From a phage, in the sequence record OZ336096.1: a DNA stretch of 64,000 nucleotides; one strand, given 5' to 3'. A program made the position numbers and the translations under genes. The notes beneath the pieces are model-generated. The model was not told the DNA's origin. It did not search any database and saw only the letters and a program-made list of their open reading frames with translations. This document shows positions 3,929 to 63,928 of the stretch, in pieces (the stretch's first letter is position 1; every line of letters begins with the position of its first letter).

Positions 3929-5275
3929 ATGAGTTCGAATATCTTCAGACTTGCTGATAGATTATTCAACCAACCTTTACTAGCCACTGAATCATTAGCT
4001 CACTCAGCAGCAACTTATGTGAATAACAGATTGCTGGGTGATGTCCAAGCAGCAGTAAACTTTGATAAACCCAAAGGTGAAGCAAGAAGTCTTTTAAAAG
4101 TGAAAGATGACATTGCTATTATCCCTATTATGGGTGGCTTAACCCATCGTATGACATTCATTGATGCAATGTGTACAGGTGGATTAAGCTCTTATGAAGG
4201 TTTGCGTAGAGGCTTTGACGAAGCTTTAGCAGATGAGTCAATTAAGACTATCGTTCTGCATATTGATTCCGGTGGTGGTGAAGCTTCAGGTTGCTTTGAA
4301 TTAGCACGTCACATTATGGCTTCAAGAGGCCAAAAGAAAATTATTGCCTATGTAGATGAGTTCGCTTGTTCCGCTGCATATGCTCTTGCATCTTCTGCTG
4401 AAGAAATTATTGCATCACCAGATGCAGATGTTGGTTCTATTGGTGTAATTATGGTTCATCAGGAATTAACTAAGGCATTTGAAAAGAATGGCGTAACAAT
4501 TAACGTCATCAAAGCTGGTGAGTTTAAAGGTATGGGTTCACCATTCCAAGCACTCTCAGAAGAAAGCAAAGAAAGACTTCAAAAGAGAATTAATGATACC
4601 TACGCAACCTTTACAGGTTTTGTAGCCGAATCTCGTAATCTCTCTGAAGAAGCTGTAAAGAATACTGAGGCGAATGTTTATTCTGCTCAGGAAGCTCTTG
4701 AACTTGGTTTAATTAACTCAATCATGTCTCAAGATGATTTCTTAAATTACTTACAAGGTTCTGAAGAGGCTCCTGTAAGTTTAAACGTTAACAATTCAGG
4801 TGAAGAAATGACTGAACAAGAAAAGCAAGAACTAGAAGCTTTGCGTCTTCAGGTTGCTCAAATGAAAGCTAAAGAACAGGAAGCTGCTTTGTCAGATTTG
4901 ACTAATAAGATTTCTGCTTCTGCTGAAGCTTTTGGGTTTGATGCAAAAGAAGCTGCAACGACTATTTTAGGTGCTGGTCTTGACAACCCTCTGAGTGTTC
5001 TGTTTATGAATGCTATGGAAGGTGCTAACCAGAAACTTAATGAAACTATCGCGTCCCATGCTTCCGCAATGGAAGAAAAAGAATCAGAAATTACCAAGCT
5101 GAAAGAAACTGCTGGTGCTGTTCTTGAACATTCCAACGCTATGGAAGAAGTGGGTAATGACGGCGAAGCTGATTTGGTTGAAGAAGAAAAAGAACCAGCT
5201 AAGAATGCTTCCGAAGACACTGCTGAACAACGCAAACTGGCTCTCCAGAATGCTCTAAAATCTCTTATCAAATAA
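3929..5275 (+). CDS. prohead protease (S49/ClpP-like) with C-terminal coiled-coil scaffold-like domain
   Basis: N-terminal half resembles SppA/S49 peptidase (HIDSGGGEASG; VDEFACSAAYALASSA); C-terminal third is E/K/A-rich coiled coil; sits between portal and capsid genes. Confidence 0.75.
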   Translation: MSSNIFRLADRLFNQPLLATESLAHSAATYVNNRLLGDVQAAVNFDKPKGEARSLLKVKDDIAIIPIMGGLTHRMTFIDAMCTGGLSSYEGLRRGFDEALADESIKTIVLHIDSGGGEASGCFELARHIMASRGQKKIIAYVDEFACSAAYALASSAEEIIASPDADVGSIGVIMVHQELTKAFEKNGVTINVIKAGEFKGMGSPFQALSEESKERLQKRINDTYATFTGFVAESRNLSEEAVKNTEANVYSAQEALELGLINSIMSQDDFLNYLQGSEEAPVSLNVNNSGEEMTEQEKQELEALRLQVAQMKAKEQEAALSDLTNKISASAEAFGFDAKEAATTILGAGLDNPLSVLFMNAMEGANQKLNETIASHASAMEEKESEITKLKETAGAVLEHSNAMEEVGNDGEADLVEEEKEPAKNASEDTAEQRKLALQNALKSLIK

Positions 5276-5286
5276 GGAACACAATA

Positions 5287-5664
5287 ATGGCATATCAAGG
5301 TTTTACTAAGTTAGGTAAAAGAGAACCTCTGAATGATATCATTCTTTGGGAACAGGTTACCCCAACAGGCCACTCTCGTAAAGAGTACACCCCACAGGCA
5401 TCTACAGAATATCGTGTAGGTGAAGTTCTGAAAGCAGACGGTACTAAGGTTACAGCAGGGCAAGAAGCTCAGGCTGATTCAGTATGTATCGTTAACTTTT
5501 ATGCAGACCTGCAACTGTCTTATCATGGTCAGTTGAAAGTTGTTGGTATCCACCGTGATGCAGAACTAAAAGACCTGCTAATTCTTGAATCAAGCGTTAA
5601 TGCTGATGAAGTCAAGAAAGCTCTGGCTGCTAAAGGCATTGATTTCGTACCAACTGGCCTGTAA
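5287..5664 (+). CDS. hypothetical head protein (possible decoration protein)
   Basis: 125-aa ORF immediately upstream of major capsid gene. Confidence 0.35.
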   Translation: MAYQGFTKLGKREPLNDIILWEQVTPTGHSRKEYTPQASTEYRVGEVLKADGTKVTAGQEAQADSVCIVNFYADLQLSYHGQLKVVGIHRDAELKDLLILESSVNADEVKKALAAKGIDFVPTGL

Positions 5665-22907: not shown

Positions 22908-23102
22908 ATGCCTACAATCCTAGCAATTCTTCTAAAAAATCTAGGTAGCTTCTTCTGGAAACTCATTTTATCCCTTCTAAGTGAATACATGATTGAGAAA
23001 GTGTTCTTTAGGCTTGCAAGATACCTTGCGAGTAAGACAGACACACCTATTGATGATGAGTTCGTAGATAACTTAGAAAAAGCTTTTAAGGGGGAGAAAT
23101 AA
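22908..23102 (+). CDS. small hydrophobic protein
   Basis: 64-aa ORF with hydrophobic N-terminus; preceded by TTGACT-17-TAATAT promoter-like element. Confidence 0.35.
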   Translation: MPTILAILLKNLGSFFWKLILSLLSEYMIEKVFFRLARYLASKTDTPIDDEFVDNLEKAFKGEK

Positions 23103-23474
23103 ATGAAGTGGCTAGAGGAGGCTTTTAAAAATAATATTGGTGCAATTGTAGTTGGTATTTTTAGTGTTATTGGGATGTATACCACCATGCAAGTCTCGGA
23201 TGGTAAGCAAGAAGTGTCTATCACAACAAAGTTACAGCAGTTAGATAATTATTCCAAAAGTAATTATTCAGCTATTCGTGATTTACAGTCTGATATGAGG
23301 CTGCTTCAGCTAGGGATGGAGAACCAGAAAGTTCAGTTAGAGAATGTTAAGGGAGAGAACGCAAAACTTACTAAGACTCTTGATAAATTCTCTGATAGTG
23401 TGAACAATCTGGCTCAATCAGTATCAGCCCTCCAAGCTATTACTGAAAAGAACACAAAGAATACTGAAAAGTAA
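23103..23474 (+). CDS. membrane-anchored coiled-coil protein
   Basis: 123-aa ORF with N-terminal hydrophobic helix (IGAIVVGIFSVIGMY) and Q/L/N-rich coiled coil; followed by terminator. Confidence 0.4.
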   Translation: MKWLEEAFKNNIGAIVVGIFSVIGMYTTMQVSDGKQEVSITTKLQQLDNYSKSNYSAIRDLQSDMRLLQLGMENQKVQLENVKGENAKLTKTLDKFSDSVNNLAQSVSALQAITEKNTKNTEK

Positions 23475-45598: not shown

Positions 45599-45840
45599 TG
45601 ACTTATGTAATTTACTCCAAAACTGGATGCCCTCAGTGTGAGACTGCAAAGAATTTTGCAAAAGCTCGTGGTATTGACCATGTTGTGAGAATGTTAGGGC
45701 AGGACTATGAACTATCAGACCTGATGGATATTGCACAGATGCCAGTTCGTCAGATGCCGTTCATCATGAAAACTGATGGACAAAACCTAAAACCTGTTGG
45801 GACGCTACAGAATTTTATGGCAGAGGTGAATAATGCTTAA
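45598..45840 (+). CDS. glutaredoxin/NrdH-like redoxin
   Basis: 80-aa ORF with CPQC active-site motif (YSKTGCPQCE), immediately after nrdB. Confidence 0.7.
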   Translation: MTYVIYSKTGCPQCETAKNFAKARGIDHVVRMLGQDYELSDLMDIAQMPVRQMPFIMKTDGQNLKPVGTLQNFMAEVNNA

Positions 45841-46039
45841 ACGCATTTGGGAAGGTTTGGTTGTTGATGCACCAGCTATTGTGATTGGTATGCTTATTGT
45901 TAACCTATTTACTGACTTTGAACAAGGTTTGTTGTTTGGAGTCATGTTACTATGGGTTATATTTGAAATCCTAGAGATACATCTGGGCATCACCGAAAAG
46001 TTAAGAAAACTCTTTGTGAAGTTTTCTAAAAAGATTTAA
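45833..46039 (+). CDS. small membrane protein
   Basis: 68-aa hydrophobic ORF; followed by terminator. Confidence 0.35.
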   Translation: MLKRIWEGLVVDAPAIVIGMLIVNLFTDFEQGLLFGVMLLWVIFEILEIHLGITEKLRKLFVKFSKKI

Positions 46040-48548: not shown

Positions 48549-48610
48549 AACTTGACAAGGTGATGTGGGTCTTGATAGGCTTGCATCACCTTTTTATTTG
48601 GAGTTACACT

Positions 48611-48946
48611 ATGGACTTGTGGCTTTATGTAGCAGTTTGTGGGATTGCATGTCTGATAATCTTATTTATTCTTGGAGTAATGCGATTTAGAGACATCATA
48701 CAGTCAGATTTTTTGCCTGAGTTTGCCATGATAGTTGGGGTTATTATACTTTGTGTCTTGGCGGTGTTCTATTCGTACAAAACTGTGATATGGATGGATG
48801 CAAACAATTGTGTAAAAACTCATCAACATCGTGAGGTTACTTATTTTGTAAGTGTACTTAGTGGGAACACCACTATACTTGTCCCACAAACTTCTGTAGA
48901 GTATCTTTACACATGTGATAATGGTAAAACTATATGGTGGAATTAA
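48611..48946 (+). CDS. membrane protein
   Basis: Two hydrophobic helices (LWLYVAVCGIACLIILFILGV; FAMIVGVIILCVLAVFY); start taken at ATG 48611. Confidence 0.4.
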   Translation: MDLWLYVAVCGIACLIILFILGVMRFRDIIQSDFLPEFAMIVGVIILCVLAVFYSYKTVIWMDANNCVKTHQHREVTYFVSVLSGNTTILVPQTSVEYLYTCDNGKTIWWN

Positions 48947-49149
48947 CAATGACAACACTCTTGAAAGCATTGACACCCATACTACATATAGCAGTCTTCT
49001 TCTTTGGGGTTAGTGTTATGGTATGGGGTTTTTCAGACCCACAATGGAGTTTCTCATATCATGGTCAGATGGATTTATGGTCATGTTTCAAACCATTTTT
49101 AGGGTTAGCTATAGCATTCAGTGCATTACCAACTAAGGTGAAATTATGA
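48934..49149 (+). CDS. small membrane protein
   Basis: 71-aa ORF with two hydrophobic segments. Confidence 0.35.
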   Translation: MVELTMTTLLKALTPILHIAVFFFGVSVMVWGFSDPQWSFSYHGQMDLWSCFKPFLGLAIAFSALPTKVKL

Positions 49150-57490: not shown

Positions 57491-57826
57491 ATGAAAATCA
57501 AAGAGATGAACATCAACATTGTCTTAGAAGAACGTTGGGAGAACATTAAGAAACCTGAAGATGGTAAAAAGTTCCTTAACAAAATTTTAGTAGCAGCTAA
57601 AGAAGAACTGACTGGCAAGATTGCAGCAGCAATCACAATAAAAGTCTGTGTAAAAGGTCTTCCAGACAACCACCAATTTGCGCTTGACGAGTTTAAAGAA
57701 AGCTTCTACAATCCAAACAAACAGATGCTTGAAAGTAACTTTGCAGTATCTACAAGTATCGTCCATGACAGAAGCTTTATCCTTTACAAAAATATGAGAG
57801 GTGAGTCATGCAAGCATATTGGATAG
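57491..57826 (+). CDS. hypothetical protein
   Basis: 111-aa ORF after terminator. Confidence 0.4.
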   Translation: MKIKEMNINIVLEERWENIKKPEDGKKFLNKILVAAKEELTGKIAAAITIKVCVKGLPDNHQFALDEFKESFYNPNKQMLESNFAVSTSIVHDRSFILYKNMRGESCKHIG

Positions 57827-57984
57827 AAATTTTACTGTCACTTGGTAGCGTAGCAGTACTTGTTTACCTTCTTTGTAAGTACTTTGCAGAACACAAGAAG
57901 TGTGATTACTGCAACGGGGAAGGGTATACAAGAGCAGGTTGTTGCCCTATGTGTGGCGGTTCTGGTAAAATGTTTAATAAGTAA
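57808..57984 (+). CDS. small membrane protein with C-terminal zinc ribbon
   Basis: 58-aa ORF absent from the supplied track (<60 aa): MQAYWIEILLSLGSVAVLVYLLCKYFAEHKKCDYCNGEGYTRAGCCPMCGGSGKMFNK; hydrophobic helix plus CxxCxGxG...CxxCxGxG; purine-rich RBS-like stretch (GAGAGGTGAG) upstream. Confidence 0.4.
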   Translation: MQAYWIEILLSLGSVAVLVYLLCKYFAEHKKCDYCNGEGYTRAGCCPMCGGSGKMFNK

Positions 57985-58012: not shown

Positions 58013-60379
58013 ATGCGCATGGTAAACGACCACGCAGAAGTGATTAAGAGTTCAACTTCTTTAGAGACGTCTCAAGCACAGATTACAATGACACCTGAAA
58101 TGTTCAGCCTTTTGAGTTCTGGTGTATATACCTTTAAAGAAAGGGCAGTGATTCGTGAACTGTCATGTAACGCAGTAGATGCTCAGAAAGAAGCTGGAAA
58201 AGAGAATATTCCGTTCCATGTGCATTTACCTACTCGTTTTGAACCTTACTTTGAAGTCCGTGATTTTGGAACTGGATTGACTCATGATAAAGTTATGAGT
58301 TTGTACCTAAACTACGGGGCTTCTACGAAGAATGACTCTAATGACTACATTGGTGCAATGGGTATCGGCTCAAAATCTCCATTTGCAATTGCTCAGTCAT
58401 TCACAGTGTCTAGCTATGTTGACGGTGTTGTTAATAAGTATTCTGTTTATCTTGAGAATGGTATCCCTCAAGTAACTAAGCTGACCACTAACCCAACAAA
58501 AGAACCTAACGGTTTAGCTGTACGTGTGGCAGTTGCTGACCACCGTATTTCAAAGTTCTTTGAAGAGGCTGGTAATGTATACTCATACTTTGCTGTAAAA
58601 CCAGAGAGTAATGTGGAGTATAATGATATATTAGCAGATATGGATGTGATTGCTCGTGAAGAAGGTGTCTATGATGCCATGACTCATAAGCATAGCTGGC
58701 GTTCAAGCAGCAATAGAACAGAGTTTAACGTGGTTATGGGTAATATTGCCTACCCAGTTAATATGGAGGCATTACTTGGTGATGATTTCTTCAAAGTCTT
58801 GCCAGAATTTTTCCGTAGGAGCGTAGACCTTGTAAACATCTACATGCCTATTGGCTCAGTTGCTATTGCAGCTTCTCGTGAAGCATTGCAGATGAATGAT
58901 ACGACAAAAAATGTTATCATTGAGGCTACTAAAAAGATAACTGAAGCGATTACAAAGGATGTTATCAAGAAAGTTAATAGTCAACCTACACTCATGGATG
59001 CTGCACAGGCTTATGCTGAGTTACGCTTGAACTCACGAGAGATGTTTAATGCTGTGTGTCCAAAGCTAGAGTGGGGAGGTGTTAAGCTTGATTCTCTGGA
59101 AGAAGAATTACTAAACATTCGTCGTGGAATTATCTACGCAGAAGACGGCTCAGTCATTTACGAACGTGACGGTAAAGGCAATATTAAGGTTGATAGGAAC
59201 GGGAACAATATACCTAAAGTAGACTACCTTTATGACCCAGTTGCTTATGTCAAGTTCAACTCTTTAGAGAGTAAGATTCGTGCAACATCGCTTTCCTACA
59301 CTCAAGAGGCAAGTATGTTCAATATCTTTGGCGCAATGCGTAAAAGCCAAATTGAACAGTTTTTGTTTGTTATAAACGACCGTCGCAATAAAAATGGTAC
59401 TGAGAAGACTGTAGGACGCAATCAGATTCTGCGTGGTGCATGTCGAGACTATGCCAGTGAGTCTAGTCTGTTTCACAGATACAACGGTATCGTCTTTGTA
59501 TTCTCGACTGAAAAAGAGTTAGACAACCTAATCAATCTGCACAAACTTGATAAAAGCTTGTTAAAGATTGTGAAGATGTCTGATAAGGAACATCATTATC
59601 AGCGTAAAGAAGCTGTAAGAGGTGTTGTAAAACTTTGGAAAGCTGTTCCAGCAGAAGGTGTAGCTTCATACAAAGAGGTGTCAGAAGACTTAGATACGAT
59701 TGAAGAGCCTCAGCTTTATATTAAGGCAGTAGGCGACACAGTTGATGGCGAATGTTTTTGCTCATCTCCAGAAGATGTAGCTAAGTCAGTTGCCAATGTC
59801 ATTGGAAAGACAGTATATGTTTTCCGAAAAGCAAATTGGAAAAAGATACCAGAAGACTGGATTGAAGTAGATGAGAAGCTCTTGAACGACAGCTTAACTG
59901 ATGTTCATTGGATTAATCATAACAGATATATGACACGTATCTATATGAATGGTGTCCTCGACCTTACAAGCAGTTGGATTATTGCCAGAAACTTTACGTT
60001 CAATAACAGAAAGATTTCTCGTGGCTATTGCTATTCACGAGACACAAACAAAACCATCTTCTTAGAAGGTAATGAAGATGCTGTTGAGGCAATGTTTGGT
60101 AAAATCCAATACGTTGCTGCACCGTTTGCATACACTTATACTATTAGTAGATTGCAAACTTTGAAAGAATGTCTTGACAACGATACAAAGCTGTACAAGA
60201 AAATCAAGAAAGCTGGTGACCGTATGGTCATTAAGGTGACAAACTACCTTTCAAAAAGAAAACAAGAAAACTTCTTGCTTTCTCATTTAGATTGGAATAA
60301 AGTGTCACCCATCGAAGTGAGTAAGTTCTTGGGCTTTGATGTGAAGTGTGTTCCAGAAGGGACTACAATTTACGATTAA
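58013..60379 (+). CDS. rIIA: rIIA-like protein with GHKL (Bergerat-fold) ATPase domain
   Basis: 788-aa ORF; N-terminus carries GHKL boxes (ELSCNAVDA; DFGTGL; GAMGIGSKSPFA) as in T4 rIIA; rIIA assignment is by domain and size only. Confidence 0.5.
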   Translation: MRMVNDHAEVIKSSTSLETSQAQITMTPEMFSLLSSGVYTFKERAVIRELSCNAVDAQKEAGKENIPFHVHLPTRFEPYFEVRDFGTGLTHDKVMSLYLNYGASTKNDSNDYIGAMGIGSKSPFAIAQSFTVSSYVDGVVNKYSVYLENGIPQVTKLTTNPTKEPNGLAVRVAVADHRISKFFEEAGNVYSYFAVKPESNVEYNDILADMDVIAREEGVYDAMTHKHSWRSSSNRTEFNVVMGNIAYPVNMEALLGDDFFKVLPEFFRRSVDLVNIYMPIGSVAIAASREALQMNDTTKNVIIEATKKITEAITKDVIKKVNSQPTLMDAAQAYAELRLNSREMFNAVCPKLEWGGVKLDSLEEELLNIRRGIIYAEDGSVIYERDGKGNIKVDRNGNNIPKVDYLYDPVAYVKFNSLESKIRATSLSYTQEASMFNIFGAMRKSQIEQFLFVINDRRNKNGTEKTVGRNQILRGACRDYASESSLFHRYNGIVFVFSTEKELDNLINLHKLDKSLLKIVKMSDKEHHYQRKEAVRGVVKLWKAVPAEGVASYKEVSEDLDTIEEPQLYIKAVGDTVDGECFCSSPEDVAKSVANVIGKTVYVFRKANWKKIPEDWIEVDEKLLNDSLTDVHWINHNRYMTRIYMNGVLDLTSSWIIARNFTFNNRKISRGYCYSRDTNKTIFLEGNEDAVEAMFGKIQYVAAPFAYTYTISRLQTLKECLDNDTKLYKKIKKAGDRMVIKVTNYLSKRKQENFLLSHLDWNKVSPIEVSKFLGFDVKCVPEGTTIYD

Positions 60380-60384
60380 AGTAT

Positions 60385-60414
60385 TTGACAAGGGGCTTTG
60401 AAGCCCCTTAGAAT
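60385..60414 (+). promoter_or_regulatory. sigma70-like promoter with palindromic spacer (TTGACA-18-TAGAAT)
   Basis: The 18-bp spacer is itself a perfect hairpin (AGGGGCTT-TG-AAGCCCCT); upstream of the 60459 gene. Confidence 0.45.
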
Positions 60415-60458: not shown

Positions 60459-61568
60459 ATGACTACTAAAACTAAAGCACAGATTGACGCAGAAATTTAC
60501 AAACTGGTTAAAGAAGGCAAGCTGACTAAAACAGCTATTGCACAGAAGTTCAATACTTCAACCCGTTCAGTTGGTCGTGCTGTAGAGCGCCATGAAGCAA
60601 CCTTAAAGGGTAAGAAAAAGATAGCTTCTAAACCAGCTACGAAGACTTTGAAGCAAGTTGCTAAATCAGTTAAAAAGAAAACTGGAAAACCAGTTGAAAA
60701 GGCCGTTAAAGACACTGTACAAAAGGCTCCGGTAAATAAACTGCATGAAGCTATGCAGAAAGATAACAAGATTGAGTACATGATTACTGGTGACTCTGTA
60801 ATTATGACTTACGGTTCAGAATCTGAAATTGTTGAGTCTACTCATCCGAACTATCAAGAGATTGTAGTTCATGTTGTGAAAGGTGAGTTCAAGAAAGCTT
60901 TCGAACTGATGAACATTCGTAAATCTATCGAAAACTTCACTCAGGGTACTATCACAATCAAAGGTGACAAGTTATTCTACGGTGCTGTTGAGATGCGTTC
61001 TACTCTGGTTGACCGTATTCTTCACATGATGAAGACTGGTGATAAAGGTTTTGAACGACTTGTAATGTTCTTCGAAAAACTGATGGAAAACCCATCTAAA
61101 GACTCTGTAGAACAACTTTGGGGATTTGTATCTCACCTTGATGTTGAAATTGATGAAGAAGGCTACATCATTGGTTGGAAGAAAGTCTCTACTCGTGAAG
61201 GCAAGCTGGTTGACTCTCACACCTACAAAGTACCTAATGATTTGGGTAACATTGTAGAAATGCCACGTTGGATGGTTGATAACAACCGTAACGTGACTTG
61301 CTCTCAGGGTCTTCATGTTGGTGCTTGGGACTATGTCCGTTGCTTCTCAGGTGATACAATCCTGAAGGTTCGTGTCAATCCACGAGATGTTGTATCTGTT
61401 CCGACTGATTACAACGATATGAAGATGCGTTCATCCCGTTATGAAGTTGCAGCAATCGTTGATAATCAACGTAAAGTGCTGAAAGCATGGGATGGTAAGA
61501 CTGAGGCTTTGCATGTCATCGTTGGCACTGATGGCGAACTCATCTCTCAACGTAAGCGTGAAATCTAA
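60459..61568 (+). CDS. hypothetical protein (possible rIIB-like partner)
   Basis: 369-aa ORF immediately downstream of the rIIA-like gene; no diagnostic motif recognised. Confidence 0.3.
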   Translation: MTTKTKAQIDAEIYKLVKEGKLTKTAIAQKFNTSTRSVGRAVERHEATLKGKKKIASKPATKTLKQVAKSVKKKTGKPVEKAVKDTVQKAPVNKLHEAMQKDNKIEYMITGDSVIMTYGSESEIVESTHPNYQEIVVHVVKGEFKKAFELMNIRKSIENFTQGTITIKGDKLFYGAVEMRSTLVDRILHMMKTGDKGFERLVMFFEKLMENPSKDSVEQLWGFVSHLDVEIDEEGYIIGWKKVSTREGKLVDSHTYKVPNDLGNIVEMPRWMVDNNRNVTCSQGLHVGAWDYVRCFSGDTILKVRVNPRDVVSVPTDYNDMKMRSSRYEVAAIVDNQRKVLKAWDGKTEALHVIVGTDGELISQRKREI

Positions 61569-61584
61569 TAAGTAATTTCTTAAA

Positions 61585-61612
61585 AGGCTGCTTCGGCGGC
61601 CTTTTTTATTTG
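61585..61612 (+). terminator. rho-independent terminator
   Basis: AGGCTGC-TTCG-GCGGCCT followed by TTTTTTATTT. Confidence 0.75.
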
Positions 61613-61668
61613 TATTTTGTGCAGAGTGCTGTATAATTGTTGTCACGATAAACTAAACAGGAGAACCA

Positions 61669-62217
61669 ATGAAGAAATTGATTCTAGGTTTGTGCTTAAT
61701 GTTTACAGCACACTTATCTTATGCAGTTGACTGCCCAGAGCTATCAATTAGCCAAAAAGTAAACATGTTAAAAGCTTACCAGTATGGTGAGAACAACATG
61801 GGTAAAGGTTGGGGTATCACTCTAGCTGCTATAGCCTTACAAGAGTCAGAGTTAGGTCTGAAGGTAGAGAATAAAAAGACACATGATTATGGTATTTTCC
61901 AGAATCACTTGAAGACTGTTGTAAAGCGTAACAAAATTAGTCCTAATGTGGCTAAAAAGAAACTCTTAAAAGACTTTAACTATGCTGCGAAGGAAACTCA
62001 CAAAGAGCTTGAGTTTTGGACAAAGGTGCATGGTCAGCCAAAGTCAAAGAAGACTTTACAAAAAGTTTTAGCATCATATAATGCTGGGTATTCGTACAAA
62101 ATCCCTAAAGCTAAGAAATATTCTCAAGATGTCTATAACAACATGAAAGTCATTGCTCAATGTGAATTTGCAACAAACATTTCTAAGGTAAACCATGAAA
62201 AAATTAAAAAAGTCTGA
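61669..62217 (+). CDS. secreted lytic transglycosylase-like protein (candidate endolysin)
   Basis: Signal peptide (MKKLILGLCLMFTAHLSYA) plus Slt-family-like motifs (ALQESELG, GIFQNH, SYNAGYS). Confidence 0.55.
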   Translation: MKKLILGLCLMFTAHLSYAVDCPELSISQKVNMLKAYQYGENNMGKGWGITLAAIALQESELGLKVENKKTHDYGIFQNHLKTVVKRNKISPNVAKKKLLKDFNYAAKETHKELEFWTKVHGQPKSKKTLQKVLASYNAGYSYKIPKAKKYSQDVYNNMKVIAQCEFATNISKVNHEKIKKV

Positions 62218-62890
62218 TGAAGTACTGTGTCATGCTTACGACTTACATCCTCATGAGTTAGGTCTTGATTCCTGTGTATGGACTCCAGAACAGTGTAGGG
62301 ATTTTGAAGACACTGCAAGAGAAGTTGTATGTTCACTCGAAGAGTTCCACACATCAGAGCCAATTGTGAATGTTGTAGATAAAGAGACTGGACAAACTAT
62401 AGGTGTAAGTCGTGATAGCTTAGTCATAGTCAATAAAGACCTTGTAGAAAAAGGTAACCTCATCTTAGCAGATATTGATGGTGTTCTTACAAATTTTAAT
62501 CACGAAGATTGCTCAACGGAATTGACTGATGGGTCATTCTCACAGTACACTAATCTTCTTGACTCTGTAAGAGCAAAACCAACGTATGTCTTTAGTATTA
62601 TTGATGCAATTGCTAATCATGCTGCTGTTGGACTCTTGACAGCGAGAGGTGAATCTCAGAGAATACCTACTGAGATGTTTTTAAGGCATAACACAGAGCA
62701 TGGCTACATGCTTTTTATGCGTGGTTTTGGGACTAACTCTATAAGTGCAGAAAGTTTGAAAGTGAGGATGATTCAGTCTTGCATTCTGCCTTACTTTAAT
62801 ATAGTATGTTTTATAGAAGACACAGAGAAGAATGTGCAGAAGGTGAACAGAATCCTTCCACACATCAAAACCATGTTAGTTAAACATTGA
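62195..62890 (+). CDS. HAD-superfamily phosphatase-like protein
   Basis: HAD motif I (LILADIDGVL), motif II-like (VGLLTARG) and C-terminal FIEDTEKN; start may be an internal ATG. Confidence 0.45.
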   Translation: MKKLKKSDEVLCHAYDLHPHELGLDSCVWTPEQCRDFEDTAREVVCSLEEFHTSEPIVNVVDKETGQTIGVSRDSLVIVNKDLVEKGNLILADIDGVLTNFNHEDCSTELTDGSFSQYTNLLDSVRAKPTYVFSIIDAIANHAAVGLLTARGESQRIPTEMFLRHNTEHGYMLFMRGFGTNSISAESLKVRMIQSCILPYFNIVCFIEDTEKNVQKVNRILPHIKTMLVKH

Positions 62891-62900
62891 GAGAAAACTT

Positions 62901-63365
62901 ATGAACAATATCATTACGGTAGCACTGGACGTTACGGCAAACAAATCTGAAGTAGTTCGTAACATTATCAAGAGCAACTTTGAGGGTAAAATTTTCCGTG
63001 CTGTCAACGTAAAAGCAGACGGTAACATCCGAGAGTATCGTGCTCTTTTGAATGTTAAGAAACACGTAAAAGGTTCTGGCTCAACTACAGCACACAAAGA
63101 AAACCTGATGACTATCTATGATATGGGTATGGCTTCAGAATTAGGTGCTGAAGGTATCGTTAAAGAAGGTGCTCCGTATCGCTCTTTCAATCTGGAAACT
63201 GCTCTTATGCTTTCCTTCACAAGTGGTTCTAAAACAACTACTTACCTCTTTACTGATGCTGCAACGGTATCTGCTATCAAGGATAGCACTGTCAAAGCTG
63301 GGGTAGCTGCTGCTGCAAAAGCTTCTTCGATGGCTGCAAATGTCCTTGCTAAAGTCCTCGGTTAA
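62901..63365 (+). CDS. hypothetical protein
   Basis: 154-aa ORF followed by terminator. Confidence 0.4.
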   Translation: MNNIITVALDVTANKSEVVRNIIKSNFEGKIFRAVNVKADGNIREYRALLNVKKHVKGSGSTTAHKENLMTIYDMGMASELGAEGIVKEGAPYRSFNLETALMLSFTSGSKTTTYLFTDAATVSAIKDSTVKAGVAAAAKASSMAANVLAKVLG

Positions 63366-63376
63366 GGTTAAGATAC

Positions 63377-63400
63377 AGGCTCCTTCGGGAGCCTTTTTCA
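63377..63400 (+). terminator. rho-independent terminator
   Basis: AGGCTCC-TTCG-GGAGCCT followed by TTTTTC. Confidence 0.8.
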
Positions 63401-63417
63401 TTTCAGGAGATTGTTAA

Positions 63418-63765
63418 ATGACATTTAAAGAGTTCTGCCAAGCTACTTTCATAATTGTTTTCTTAGTTGGAGCAGGTGTCTGGGGAGGATACTCTTACAG
63501 AGACTACCAAGTTGCTGAAGCTGAGCTAAATAATGAGAAACTAATAAGTGTTGCTAAAGATGCTTATCAGGAAGGTTTAGCCACACTCAGCACCAATTAC
63601 AAAAATGATTTGAAAGACGTGCTTGCTAAGAATAAGCACACAAAAGAGGTACTAACATATGAAAAGACTAAGCCAGAGTTTTATAATGTTTGTGTTACTG
63701 ATAATTATGTCAGGGTGTTCAACGAACAAAGTGAACAGTACATTCAAAAACTCCCAAGTAAGTGA
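63418..63765 (+). CDS. i-spanin-like protein (Rz-like)
   Basis: N-terminal transmembrane helix (ATFIIVFLVGAGVWGG) followed by charged helical periplasmic-type domain; contains an embedded out-of-frame lipoprotein ORF. Confidence 0.5.
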   Translation: MTFKEFCQATFIIVFLVGAGVWGGYSYRDYQVAEAELNNEKLISVAKDAYQEGLATLSTNYKNDLKDVLAKNKHTKEVLTYEKTKPEFYNVCVTDNYVRVFNEQSEQYIQKLPSK

Positions 63766-63928
63766 GAGTGACAAGTACACTCAAGAAGAGTCAAGATTCA
63801 CTGTCAAAGGTAATACTGGTAGTGATGTGGCAGCAGCCCTTGAGTTTTATCGTGATGGTTTTTACCAGTGCACAATCAAAGCTAATAACCTTATTGACAT
63901 GATTTTATTAGGGAACAAACAGCAATGA
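63659..63928 (+). CDS. o-spanin-like lipoprotein (Rz1-like), embedded/overlapping
   Basis: Starts inside the Rz-like gene in another frame; signal peptide with lipobox (LLIIMSGC). Confidence 0.5.
   Translation: MKRLSQSFIMFVLLIIMSGCSTNKVNSTFKNSQVSESDKYTQEESRFTVKGNTGSDVAAALEFYRDGFYQCTIKANNLIDMILLGNKQQ

Follow-up and report, generated by a model that had tools for sequence, protein, structure and literature searches.

Positions 61669 to 63928 of the phage sequence OZ336096.1, which we analysed as one stretch of 64,000 nucleotides (nt; the window), end in a pair of overlapping genes (63418-63928) that, judged by sequence, encode a genuine two-component spanin of an already catalogued family. Upstream of this pair lies the gene of a lysozyme-like protein with a predicted export signal (61669-62217), which we consider to be an orthologue of T4 Vs.1 with an accessory role, the lysis endolysin being a GH24 lysozyme encoded elsewhere. 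Taken as a whole, this explanation appears very probable to us. It sees in the segment a conserved block, formed by the rIIA-rIIB, the vs.1-pseT-like and the spanin genes, with two functionally separate parts split by an intrinsic terminator. A preliminary description of the same DNA had proposed dispersed lysis genes, namely a secreted Slt-like transglycosylase, a HAD-like gene, a hypothetical gene and an embedded Rz/Rz1 pair, with no holin nearby and a signal-arrest-release (SAR) type of endolysin. All five open reading frames (ORFs) that it listed were found exactly where it had placed them.

The source phage can be assigned by sequence to Felixounavirus, that is, to the Felix O1-like virulent myoviruses. 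A stretch of 2.5 kb around the segment matched 258 phage records. Of these, 156 reached 95-99% nt identity, and nearly all belonged to Felixounavirus, whose members matched here are Felix O1-like myoviruses from Escherichia, Salmonella and Shigella; identity to many sequenced phages of E. coli and Salmonella is 96-98%. Mapped on the Salmonella phage Meda, the window starts at the terminase gene, takes in the structural and replication modules, and closes with rIIA, rIIB and the spanin genes. The three genes on which the main finding depends are:

63418..63765, plus strand: predicted i-spanin, 115 amino acids (aa); phrog_1152 Rz-like spanin, E 8.9e-42; transmembrane domain (TMD) at ~aa 6-24; periplasmic Cys92

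63659..63928, plus strand: predicted o-spanin, 89 aa, in the +1 frame; lipobox MSGC, Cys20 at 63716-63718; phrog_4180, E 8.7e-51, and phrog_456 Rz-like spanin, E 6.1e-5

61669..62217, plus strand: predicted T4 Vs.1 orthologue, GH23/SLT-like, from homology, motifs and predicted structure; phrog_600 (no function assigned)

In support of the spanin assignment, one TMD was predicted for the i-spanin, near its N-terminus (aa 6-24; Kyte-Doolittle 1.75), with type II inner-membrane topology, and the o-spanin begins with MKRLSQSFIMFVLLIIMSGC followed by ST, which gives the lipobox MSGC, already pointed out in the preliminary description, with Cys20 and a Ser at +2. Since there is no Asp at +2, the o-spanin is predicted to be sorted to the outer membrane. 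Its gene has its own ribosome-binding site (RBS), GAGG, 9 nt upstream, which is also annotated in Meda. A six-frame scan of the window for ORFs of at least 50 aa returned this ORF as the sole one with a lipoprotein signal; the chance expectation, obtained from 30 random sequences of the same dinucleotide composition (first-order Markov), was 0.03 such ORFs per window. Searches of Pfam/NCBIfam gave nothing meaningful for either subunit, only sub-threshold coiled-coil or lipoprotein noise.

The overlapping lipoprotein ORF, in the +1 frame and with its lipobox, is kept in 11 phages from seven genera. The phages are that of the window, Meda, warpig, Bas63, Felix O1, SUSP1, Michonne, phiEa21-4, a Kuravirus podophage and two P2-like Peduoviridae; the genera are Felixounavirus, Suspvirus, Mooglevirus, Kolesnikvirus, Kuravirus and two of Peduoviridae. 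Even in the most distant of them, where identity of the i-spanin is down to ~26-27%, the o-spanin ORF is still in frame. The loss of frame in relatives that the preliminary description had named as grounds for refutation was not seen. Four-way alignments showed CST (from the lipobox Cys onward), Cys71 of the o-spanin and Cys92 of the i-spanin to be invariant, and the C-terminal o-spanin motif LE[FYW][YW]xD...C...N.L to be conserved. We predict that Cys92 and Cys71 are candidate residues for intermolecular disulfides. It could be argued that the out-of-frame lipoprotein ORF is a product of chance and just the Rz-like gene is real, as in those records where the i-spanin alone is annotated. The conservation of frame and lipobox at such low identity, the RBS and the expectation of 0.03 per window leave practically no likelihood for this, and the Rz/Rz1-type pair is upheld by the phrog_1152 match, the TMD, the lipobox and its presence in 11 phages.

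The architecture of the pair is not the one that the preliminary description had given. Kongari et al. [quoted passage not shown] Here the o-spanin gene starts 107 nt 5' of the i-spanin stop, in the +1 frame, and ends 163 nt 3' of that stop. Because it runs 163 nt beyond the i-spanin stop, the pair is of the overlapped class, not embedded. The same publication includes Felix01, wV8, EC6, Moogle, Mushroom and UAB_Phi87, together with phiEco32-like phages, in its JH2 overlapped i-spanin family. In agreement with this, ORF6/ORF7 of Felix O1 have the same lengths (115 and 89 aa), the same 107-nt overlap in the +1 frame and the same MSGC lipobox, and differ from the window pair by a few amino-acid substitutions and nothing of substance. 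The i-spanins of the Felixounavirus relatives Meda, CL1 and Bas63 are 97-100% identical to that of the window, and the o-spanin is annotated in GenBank for Meda, Bas63, SUSP1 and Michonne.

Comparison with the prototypes places the pair among known spanins. P2 LysB/LysC and lambda Rz/Rz1 have in common with it a type II inner-membrane subunit, an outer-membrane lipoprotein in the +1 frame and periplasmic Cys residues in both subunits; neither of them showed detectable similarity to it in sequence. Lambda Rz/Rz1 is embedded, unlike the window pair, and Rz1 is shorter than the window o-spanin. Unlike both prototypes, the window spanin genes lie outside any lysis cassette. In this last respect they are closer to T4, whose spanins PseT.3/PseT.2 also stand beside a pseT-type gene, in an early/middle region and far from the endolysin and holin genes; rIIA and rIIB are present in both phages, and the dispersed lysis genes of T4 are e, t, rI and rIII. 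The T4 spanins belong to the "separated" class (Kongari et al. 2018, PMC6139136), though their annotated coding sequences (CDSs) abut with a 4-nt overlap, and they lie 5' of pseT, whereas those of the window are overlapped and lie 3' of the pseT-like gene.

The tie to lysis comes from genomic context. In vB_YenM_324 and SI7, two P2-like Peduoviridae, a homologous spanin pair directly follows annotated holin and endolysin genes, and therefore this spanin family is tied to lysis by its context. From the sequence we infer the same function for the window pair. The i-spanin would be held in the inner membrane by its N-terminal TMD and the lipoprotein o-spanin at the outer membrane; their periplasmic C-terminal parts would bind to each other, forming a complex across the periplasm; and once the peptidoglycan has been destroyed, the complexes would fuse or disrupt the outer membrane as the last step of lysis. 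Neither a holin nor an endolysin gene was found near the spanins from the ORFs, by tblastn or in a TMD scan of the window. Linkage in a cassette is usual for spanins and, as the case of T4 shows, not obligatory.

Some side observations concern the spanin genes. A 68-nt stretch of the overlap (63658-63725) is 79-85% identical to the spanin gene of phiEco32-like podophages (Kuravirus CHD5UKE1, L009 2679-2794). Within the i-spanin, the 35 residues that the overlap encodes reach 63% identity to the Kuravirus protein, versus 11-13% in the rest. This similarity points to dual-coding constraint or to module exchange. In several GenBank records, such as that of warpig (L002 5208-5429 vs 5160-5429), the o-spanin CDS begins 48 nt too late, at the lipobox Met, and therefore the signal sequence of the o-spanin is lost. 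Other records (bumzen, PHB11 and vB_Si_DR094, the last according to PMC8300805) carry no o-spanin annotation.

The gene at 61669-62217 encodes a protein of 182 aa whose N-terminus, MKKLILGLCLMFTAHLSYA followed by VD, is signal-like. The signal peptide covers aa 1-19 (61669-61725), with two Lys, a 13-residue Leu-rich h-region and a signal-peptidase site at SYA/V (the slash marks the cut). The h-region, LILGLCLMFTAHL, consists to 62% of L/I/V/F/M, and G/A/S/T make up 31% of residues 4-19. We called SAR or cleavable signal by composition rules, taking a SAR domain to be a long, Gly/Ala-rich, uncleaved and weakly hydrophobic TMD. By these rules the N-terminus is a predicted cleavable Sec signal, not a SAR domain, so the protein may well be secreted, as the preliminary description had it, and would lose its signal on export.

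Motifs, fold and homology converge on the identity of this protein. In 14 aligned homologues, E59 (E-S motif), Q78 (G-x-F-Q) and Y137-N138-x-G140 are invariant and S60 nearly so; the three invariant elements are the signature of the family-1 transglycosylases (GH23), with the catalytic Glu59 encoded at 61843-61845. Cys22 and Cys165 are both present in ten of these homologues and both absent from the other four; since the two are always found or missing together, they probably form a periplasmic disulfide. The AlphaFold2 model has a mean predicted local distance difference test score of 84.7, with the 19 N-terminal residues disordered, and its top Foldseek matches were g-type lysozymes, Slt70, MltE, MltF and Cj0843 (probability 0.96-1.0, template modelling (TM) score ~0.5). 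The modelled structure is consistent with a lysozyme-like alpha-helical fold at the level of the GH23/SLT superfamily, and muramidase or lytic transglycosylase activity would be expected.

A profile search of PDB structures placed first EtgA, a transglycosylase associated with a type III secretion system (E 2.4e-4), followed by goose-type lysozymes. EtgA, a lytic transglycosylase specialised for a secretion system, resembles the window protein in being small, with a signal peptide and one GH23 domain. The similarity is weak and, unlike EtgA, the window gene is phage-encoded and has no secretion-system partner. IagB, IpgF, P19 and VirB1 are likewise lytic transglycosylases specialised for secretion systems; these enzymes are ~150-190 aa long and combine a signal peptide with one GH23 domain.

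The name of the protein comes from T4. The protein is 32% identical to T4 Vs.1 over 172 columns (E 3e-16; 182 vs 180 aa) and 44% identical to a phiEa21-4 protein labelled Vs.1; the counterpart in Felix O1, ORF3, carries the record note "protein in vs-regB intergenic region". A tblastn search found homologues in 2141 phage records, among them those of T4-like and Vi1-like phages, in which the gene goes by the name vs.1. We consider the sequence evidence to identify 61669-62217 as an orthologue of T4 Vs.1. The two proteins share the N-terminal signal peptide and the ES, GxFQ and YNxG motifs; T4 Vs.1 is without the Cys22/Cys165 pair, and its gene has regB and vs as neighbours where the window gene has rIIB and the pseT-like gene. 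A marginal SLT match of vs.1 was reported by Nolan et al. 2006, who left its function open.

A single homologue of the Vs.1-like protein (P0020) was "bacterial", in the "Campylobacter coli" assembly GCA_053226485.1 (L019 6001-6582, on a contig of 214.8 kb). A gene with a Chimallin_Phikzvirus domain, the shell protein of the phage nucleus, lies 1.4 kb away from it (L019 8019-9953), and the contig is probably that of a nucleus-forming jumbo phage in a Campylobacter assembly. The origin in a cellular secretion system that this homologue could have suggested was dropped, since the contig has a chimallin gene and is probably phage DNA.

The endolysin of these phages seems to lie beyond the window. 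In the relatives, a soluble Phage_lysozyme protein of 154 aa (PF00959, E 2e-40) is encoded ~14 kb past the position of the window end; it is annotated in Meda and warpig, and the gene is present in 238 records. A tblastn search of the window with the GH24 endolysin of Meda gave no match (best E 3.5). For CL1 and C600M2, two close relatives, the lysin was purified and proved lytic in vitro (PMC9156722). By homology, we take this soluble GH24 lysozyme, encoded outside the window, to be the lysis endolysin of the Felix O1-like group. Because it is soluble, it would need a canonical large-hole holin and not a pinholin. Note that two genes 3' of the GH24 endolysin in warpig, a 134-aa gene (warpig_77, L005 13959-14363) is annotated as "D-alanyl-D-alanine carboxypeptidase". 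Its product has no Pfam match at E <= 0.01, which leaves this label unsupported; the gene could be lysis-associated.

The order of the remaining genes and signals in and around the segment is as follows:

58013..60379, plus strand: rIIA homologue; phrog_612 RIIA, E 1.2e-189; annotated rIIA in relatives

60459..61568, plus strand: rIIB homologue; phrog_609 RIIB, E 1.6e-89; same annotation in relatives

61582..61605, plus strand: intrinsic terminator 3' of rIIB; 10-bp stem, UUCG loop and T-run; Meda and Michonne have one annotated at the corresponding position

61610..61637, plus strand: weak sigma-70-like promoter candidate, TTGTAT-16 nt-TATAAT, read by eye

62195..62890, plus strand: predicted protein with a PseT-like HAD 3'-phosphatase domain; phrog_3970, E 2.9e-133; overlaps the preceding gene by 23 nt

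62901..63365, plus strand: conserved 154-aa protein, no assigned function; phrog_2267

63377..63394, plus strand: intrinsic terminator directly 5' of the i-spanin RBS; 7-bp GC-rich stem, UUCG loop and T-run; annotated alike in Meda, Michonne and phiEa21-4

Two strong terminators, at 61582-61605 and 63377-63394, thus bound a unit made of the Vs.1-like, the HAD phosphatase and the 154-aa genes, and the spanin genes open the next unit. Since the second terminator ends just 23 nt short of the i-spanin start, which is space for an RBS only, spanin transcription would come from read-through of this terminator or from a promoter inside the upstream gene. The promoter candidate at 61610-61637 was not reported by the promoter scan because its -35 hexamer matches the consensus at 3 of 6 positions only. 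A near-consensus sigma-70 promoter-like site (60385-60414, TTGACA-18 nt-TAGAAT, 11 of 12 matches) was seen in the 79-nt gap between rIIA and rIIB.

We then weighed our explanation against other readings of the Vs.1-like enzyme. In the preliminary description the Slt-like enzyme was the endolysin itself, working by a signal-peptide or SAR route with a pinholin elsewhere, for example at 22908-23474. The N-terminal export signal and the conserved GH23 catalytic motifs would fit this, as would the "putative lysin" label of the homologues in some GenBank records, the lack of a holin beside the spanins, and the Felix O1 reverse-transcription PCR, where ORF3 peaks at 25 min along with ORF6 and the lysin, ORF35. 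We gave the latter little weight, the timing table being noisy, with capsid genes in the 5-min class. However, the signal is short and Leu-rich with a SYA/V site, which is not SAR-like, and the protein is, by sequence, an orthologue of T4 Vs.1. T4 has vs.1 plus a separate endolysin (e), holin (t) and spanins, and textbook genetics tells us that e and t mutants do not lyse though vs.1 is intact; therefore Vs.1 is not sufficient for lysis in T4. Moreover, a soluble GH24 lysozyme is found in 238 relatives, one of them with an enzyme lytic in vitro, and it is to this gene that the CPT annotators gave the endolysin label, the SLT-like gene receiving "lysozyme-like domain" only. An endolysin of the SAR type is highly unlikely on this evidence. 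A virion enzyme that digests peptidoglycan at DNA injection, a possibility named in the preliminary description as one that would refute it, is less likely still. Virion-associated GH23 domains are found in many tailed phages, but a cleavable Sec signal would take the protein to the periplasm, away from the cytoplasmic assembly of virions, and the gene lies outside the structural module. In Felix O1, mass spectrometry identified 17 virion proteins, and ORF3 is not one of them (Whichard 2010). We rejected this reading because of the signal peptide and of this absence from the virion proteome.

More credible than either, and in our view possible though doubtful, is that lysis from within does not involve the Vs.1-like enzyme, which would serve another purpose in the periplasm: it might exclude superinfecting phages, confer resistance to lysis from without, turn over muropeptides, or open up space in the sacculus as the infected cell enlarges. 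The gene stands in an early/middle-type block with rIIA/rIIB and the pseT-like gene, with a terminator before the spanins; it is conserved in T4-like, Vi1-like and Felix O1-like phages and on the chimallin contig, all with separate endolysins; and EtgA, which ranked first among solved structures, opens gaps locally without lysing cells. For none of the proposed roles, however, is there direct evidence. The explanation that we prefer has the Vs.1-like enzyme exported by the Sec pathway, its signal cleaved, and the mature protein engaged in accessory remodelling of the periplasmic cell wall, not acting as the lysis endolysin; that role would belong to the GH24 lysozyme. This accessory role is suggested by the combined evidence, and several points weigh against the explanation of which it forms part. 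The match to Pfam SLT (PF01464) scores 18.9 bits, under the gathering cut-off of 21.3 bits, which T4 Vs.1 passes with 25.1 bits; "Slt-like", the term of the preliminary description, stands at the superfamily level, from motifs and fold, and does not reach the Pfam family itself. The Foldseek E-values are modest, the best being 3e-3 with a TM score of ~0.5. The o-spanin is without proline, unlike lambda Rz1, and the terminator directly 5' of the i-spanin gene leaves no space for a promoter, so that expression would have to use read-through. The GH24 gene of the present phage is assumed from its relatives, its own genome being visible to the end of the window. Finally, in the searchable literature we found no experimental work on the present spanin pair, Vs.1 homologues or holin candidates of Felixounavirus.

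In agreement with the preliminary description, the TMD scan found no small membrane protein near the spanins or next to 61669-62217. Five small TMD proteins are encoded in the window, at 23103-23474, 45833-46039, 48560-48946, 48934-49149 and 57808-57984. By count and position they appear to match the five candidates of Whichard et al. 2010, the match to gp79 alone being confirmed. The two genes of interest here are:

22908..23102, plus strand: 64-aa protein with an amphipathic or hydrophobic N-terminus; phrog_402 (no assigned function); 5' of the holin candidate

23103..23474, plus strand: holin candidate, equivalent of Felix O1 gp79; one N-terminal TMD and a coiled-coil tail; phrog_4038 (no assigned function)

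The product of 23103-23474 has its TMD at aa 12-29 and a charged coiled-coil tail, and its gene is the last of the late tail-fibre operon. It is labelled "holin" in many GenBank records, including that of the CPT-annotated Mordin, and gp79 is among the holin candidates listed in Whichard 2010. No holin family was matched (phrog_4038; in Pfam, a sub-threshold coiled coil only), nothing meaningful was found in Pfam/NCBIfam for either gene, and BLASTP gave no similarity of 23103-23474 to the T4 holin T (E 41), its likeness to T4 t being one of gene position only. We consider 23103-23474 the best holin candidate in the window. The suggestion of the preliminary description that the holin might be at 22908-23474 agrees with the GenBank label on 23103-23474, but the label is without family or experimental support. 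Note that Felixounavirus DNA corresponding to 22908-23474 (~98% nt and 98-100% protein identity) is also contained in GU169904.1 (86439-87330; "Staphylococcus phage SA1", 147 kb) and MG065664.1 (28012-28380; "Campylobacter phage A132"), and that vB_EcoM_P54 (PV390658.1) bears the taxonomy line Tequatrovirus. These three records look chimeric, contaminated or mislabelled.

Between the Vs.1-like gene and the spanins, the HAD-like gene proposed previously was recovered: the protein encoded at 62195-62890 (231 aa) shows DIDGV, a HAD motif, at residue 93 and lacks a Walker A motif or kinase P-loop. Its match to phrog_505 is restricted to profile positions 158-282 of 295, and its first ~85 residues have no match. 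The protein is a HAD phosphatase relative with only the 3'-phosphatase half of T4 PseT. Because DIDGV is present and the P-loop absent, "HAD-like" appears more accurate than the GenBank label "polynucleotide kinase", and the Michonne record notes of the same gene that it "contains HAD-like domain". In phage Meda, the pseT-like gene is split into two ORFs. The 154-aa protein encoded at 62901-63365 has no Pfam or NCBIfam match and an Ala-rich amphipathic C-terminus. Its gene is syntenic in all the Ounavirinae that we examined. The genomes of Felixounavirus, Suspvirus and Mooglevirus among them always have it flanked by the pseT-like gene and the spanins; Kolesnikvirus also carries it, with three further genes before the spanins.

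Much of this picture has been published for Felix O1-like phages. The absence of holin-lysin cassettes in Felix O1, with the comparison to T4, was described by Whichard 2010; the Moogle report (2015) found the lysis proteins of Felix O1-like phages, namely the endolysin, both spanins and a putative holin, "scattered around the genome"; and that of Meda (2019) described distributed lysis genes with the holin not identified. The dispersed lysis genes without an adjacent holin agree with all three. For these phages, earlier publications thus already cover the spanin pair and its overlapped class, the scattered lysis genes and the missing holin. The preliminary description restated what had been published, with the architecture given wrongly and a guess about mechanism that is not supported.

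As a discovery, the segment matters little. Two cautions follow from it: the true endolysin may lie out of sight of a 64-kb window, and embedded spanins need to be told apart from overlapped ones. The identity of the holin and the role of the Vs.1-type enzyme are two small questions that can be tested in tractable E. coli phages such as Bas63. We think it unlikely that the Vs.1-family enzyme is a second, holin-independent muralytic arm, delivered by the Sec pathway in mid-infection and pre-weakening or remodelling the sacculus. If this were true, the enzyme would set the kinetics of lysis or free caged spanin complexes in Felix O1-like, T4-like and Vi1-like myoviruses, and a function would be at hand for a gene whose conservation extends to over 2000 phage genomes and which has gone unexplained since the annotation of the T4 genome.

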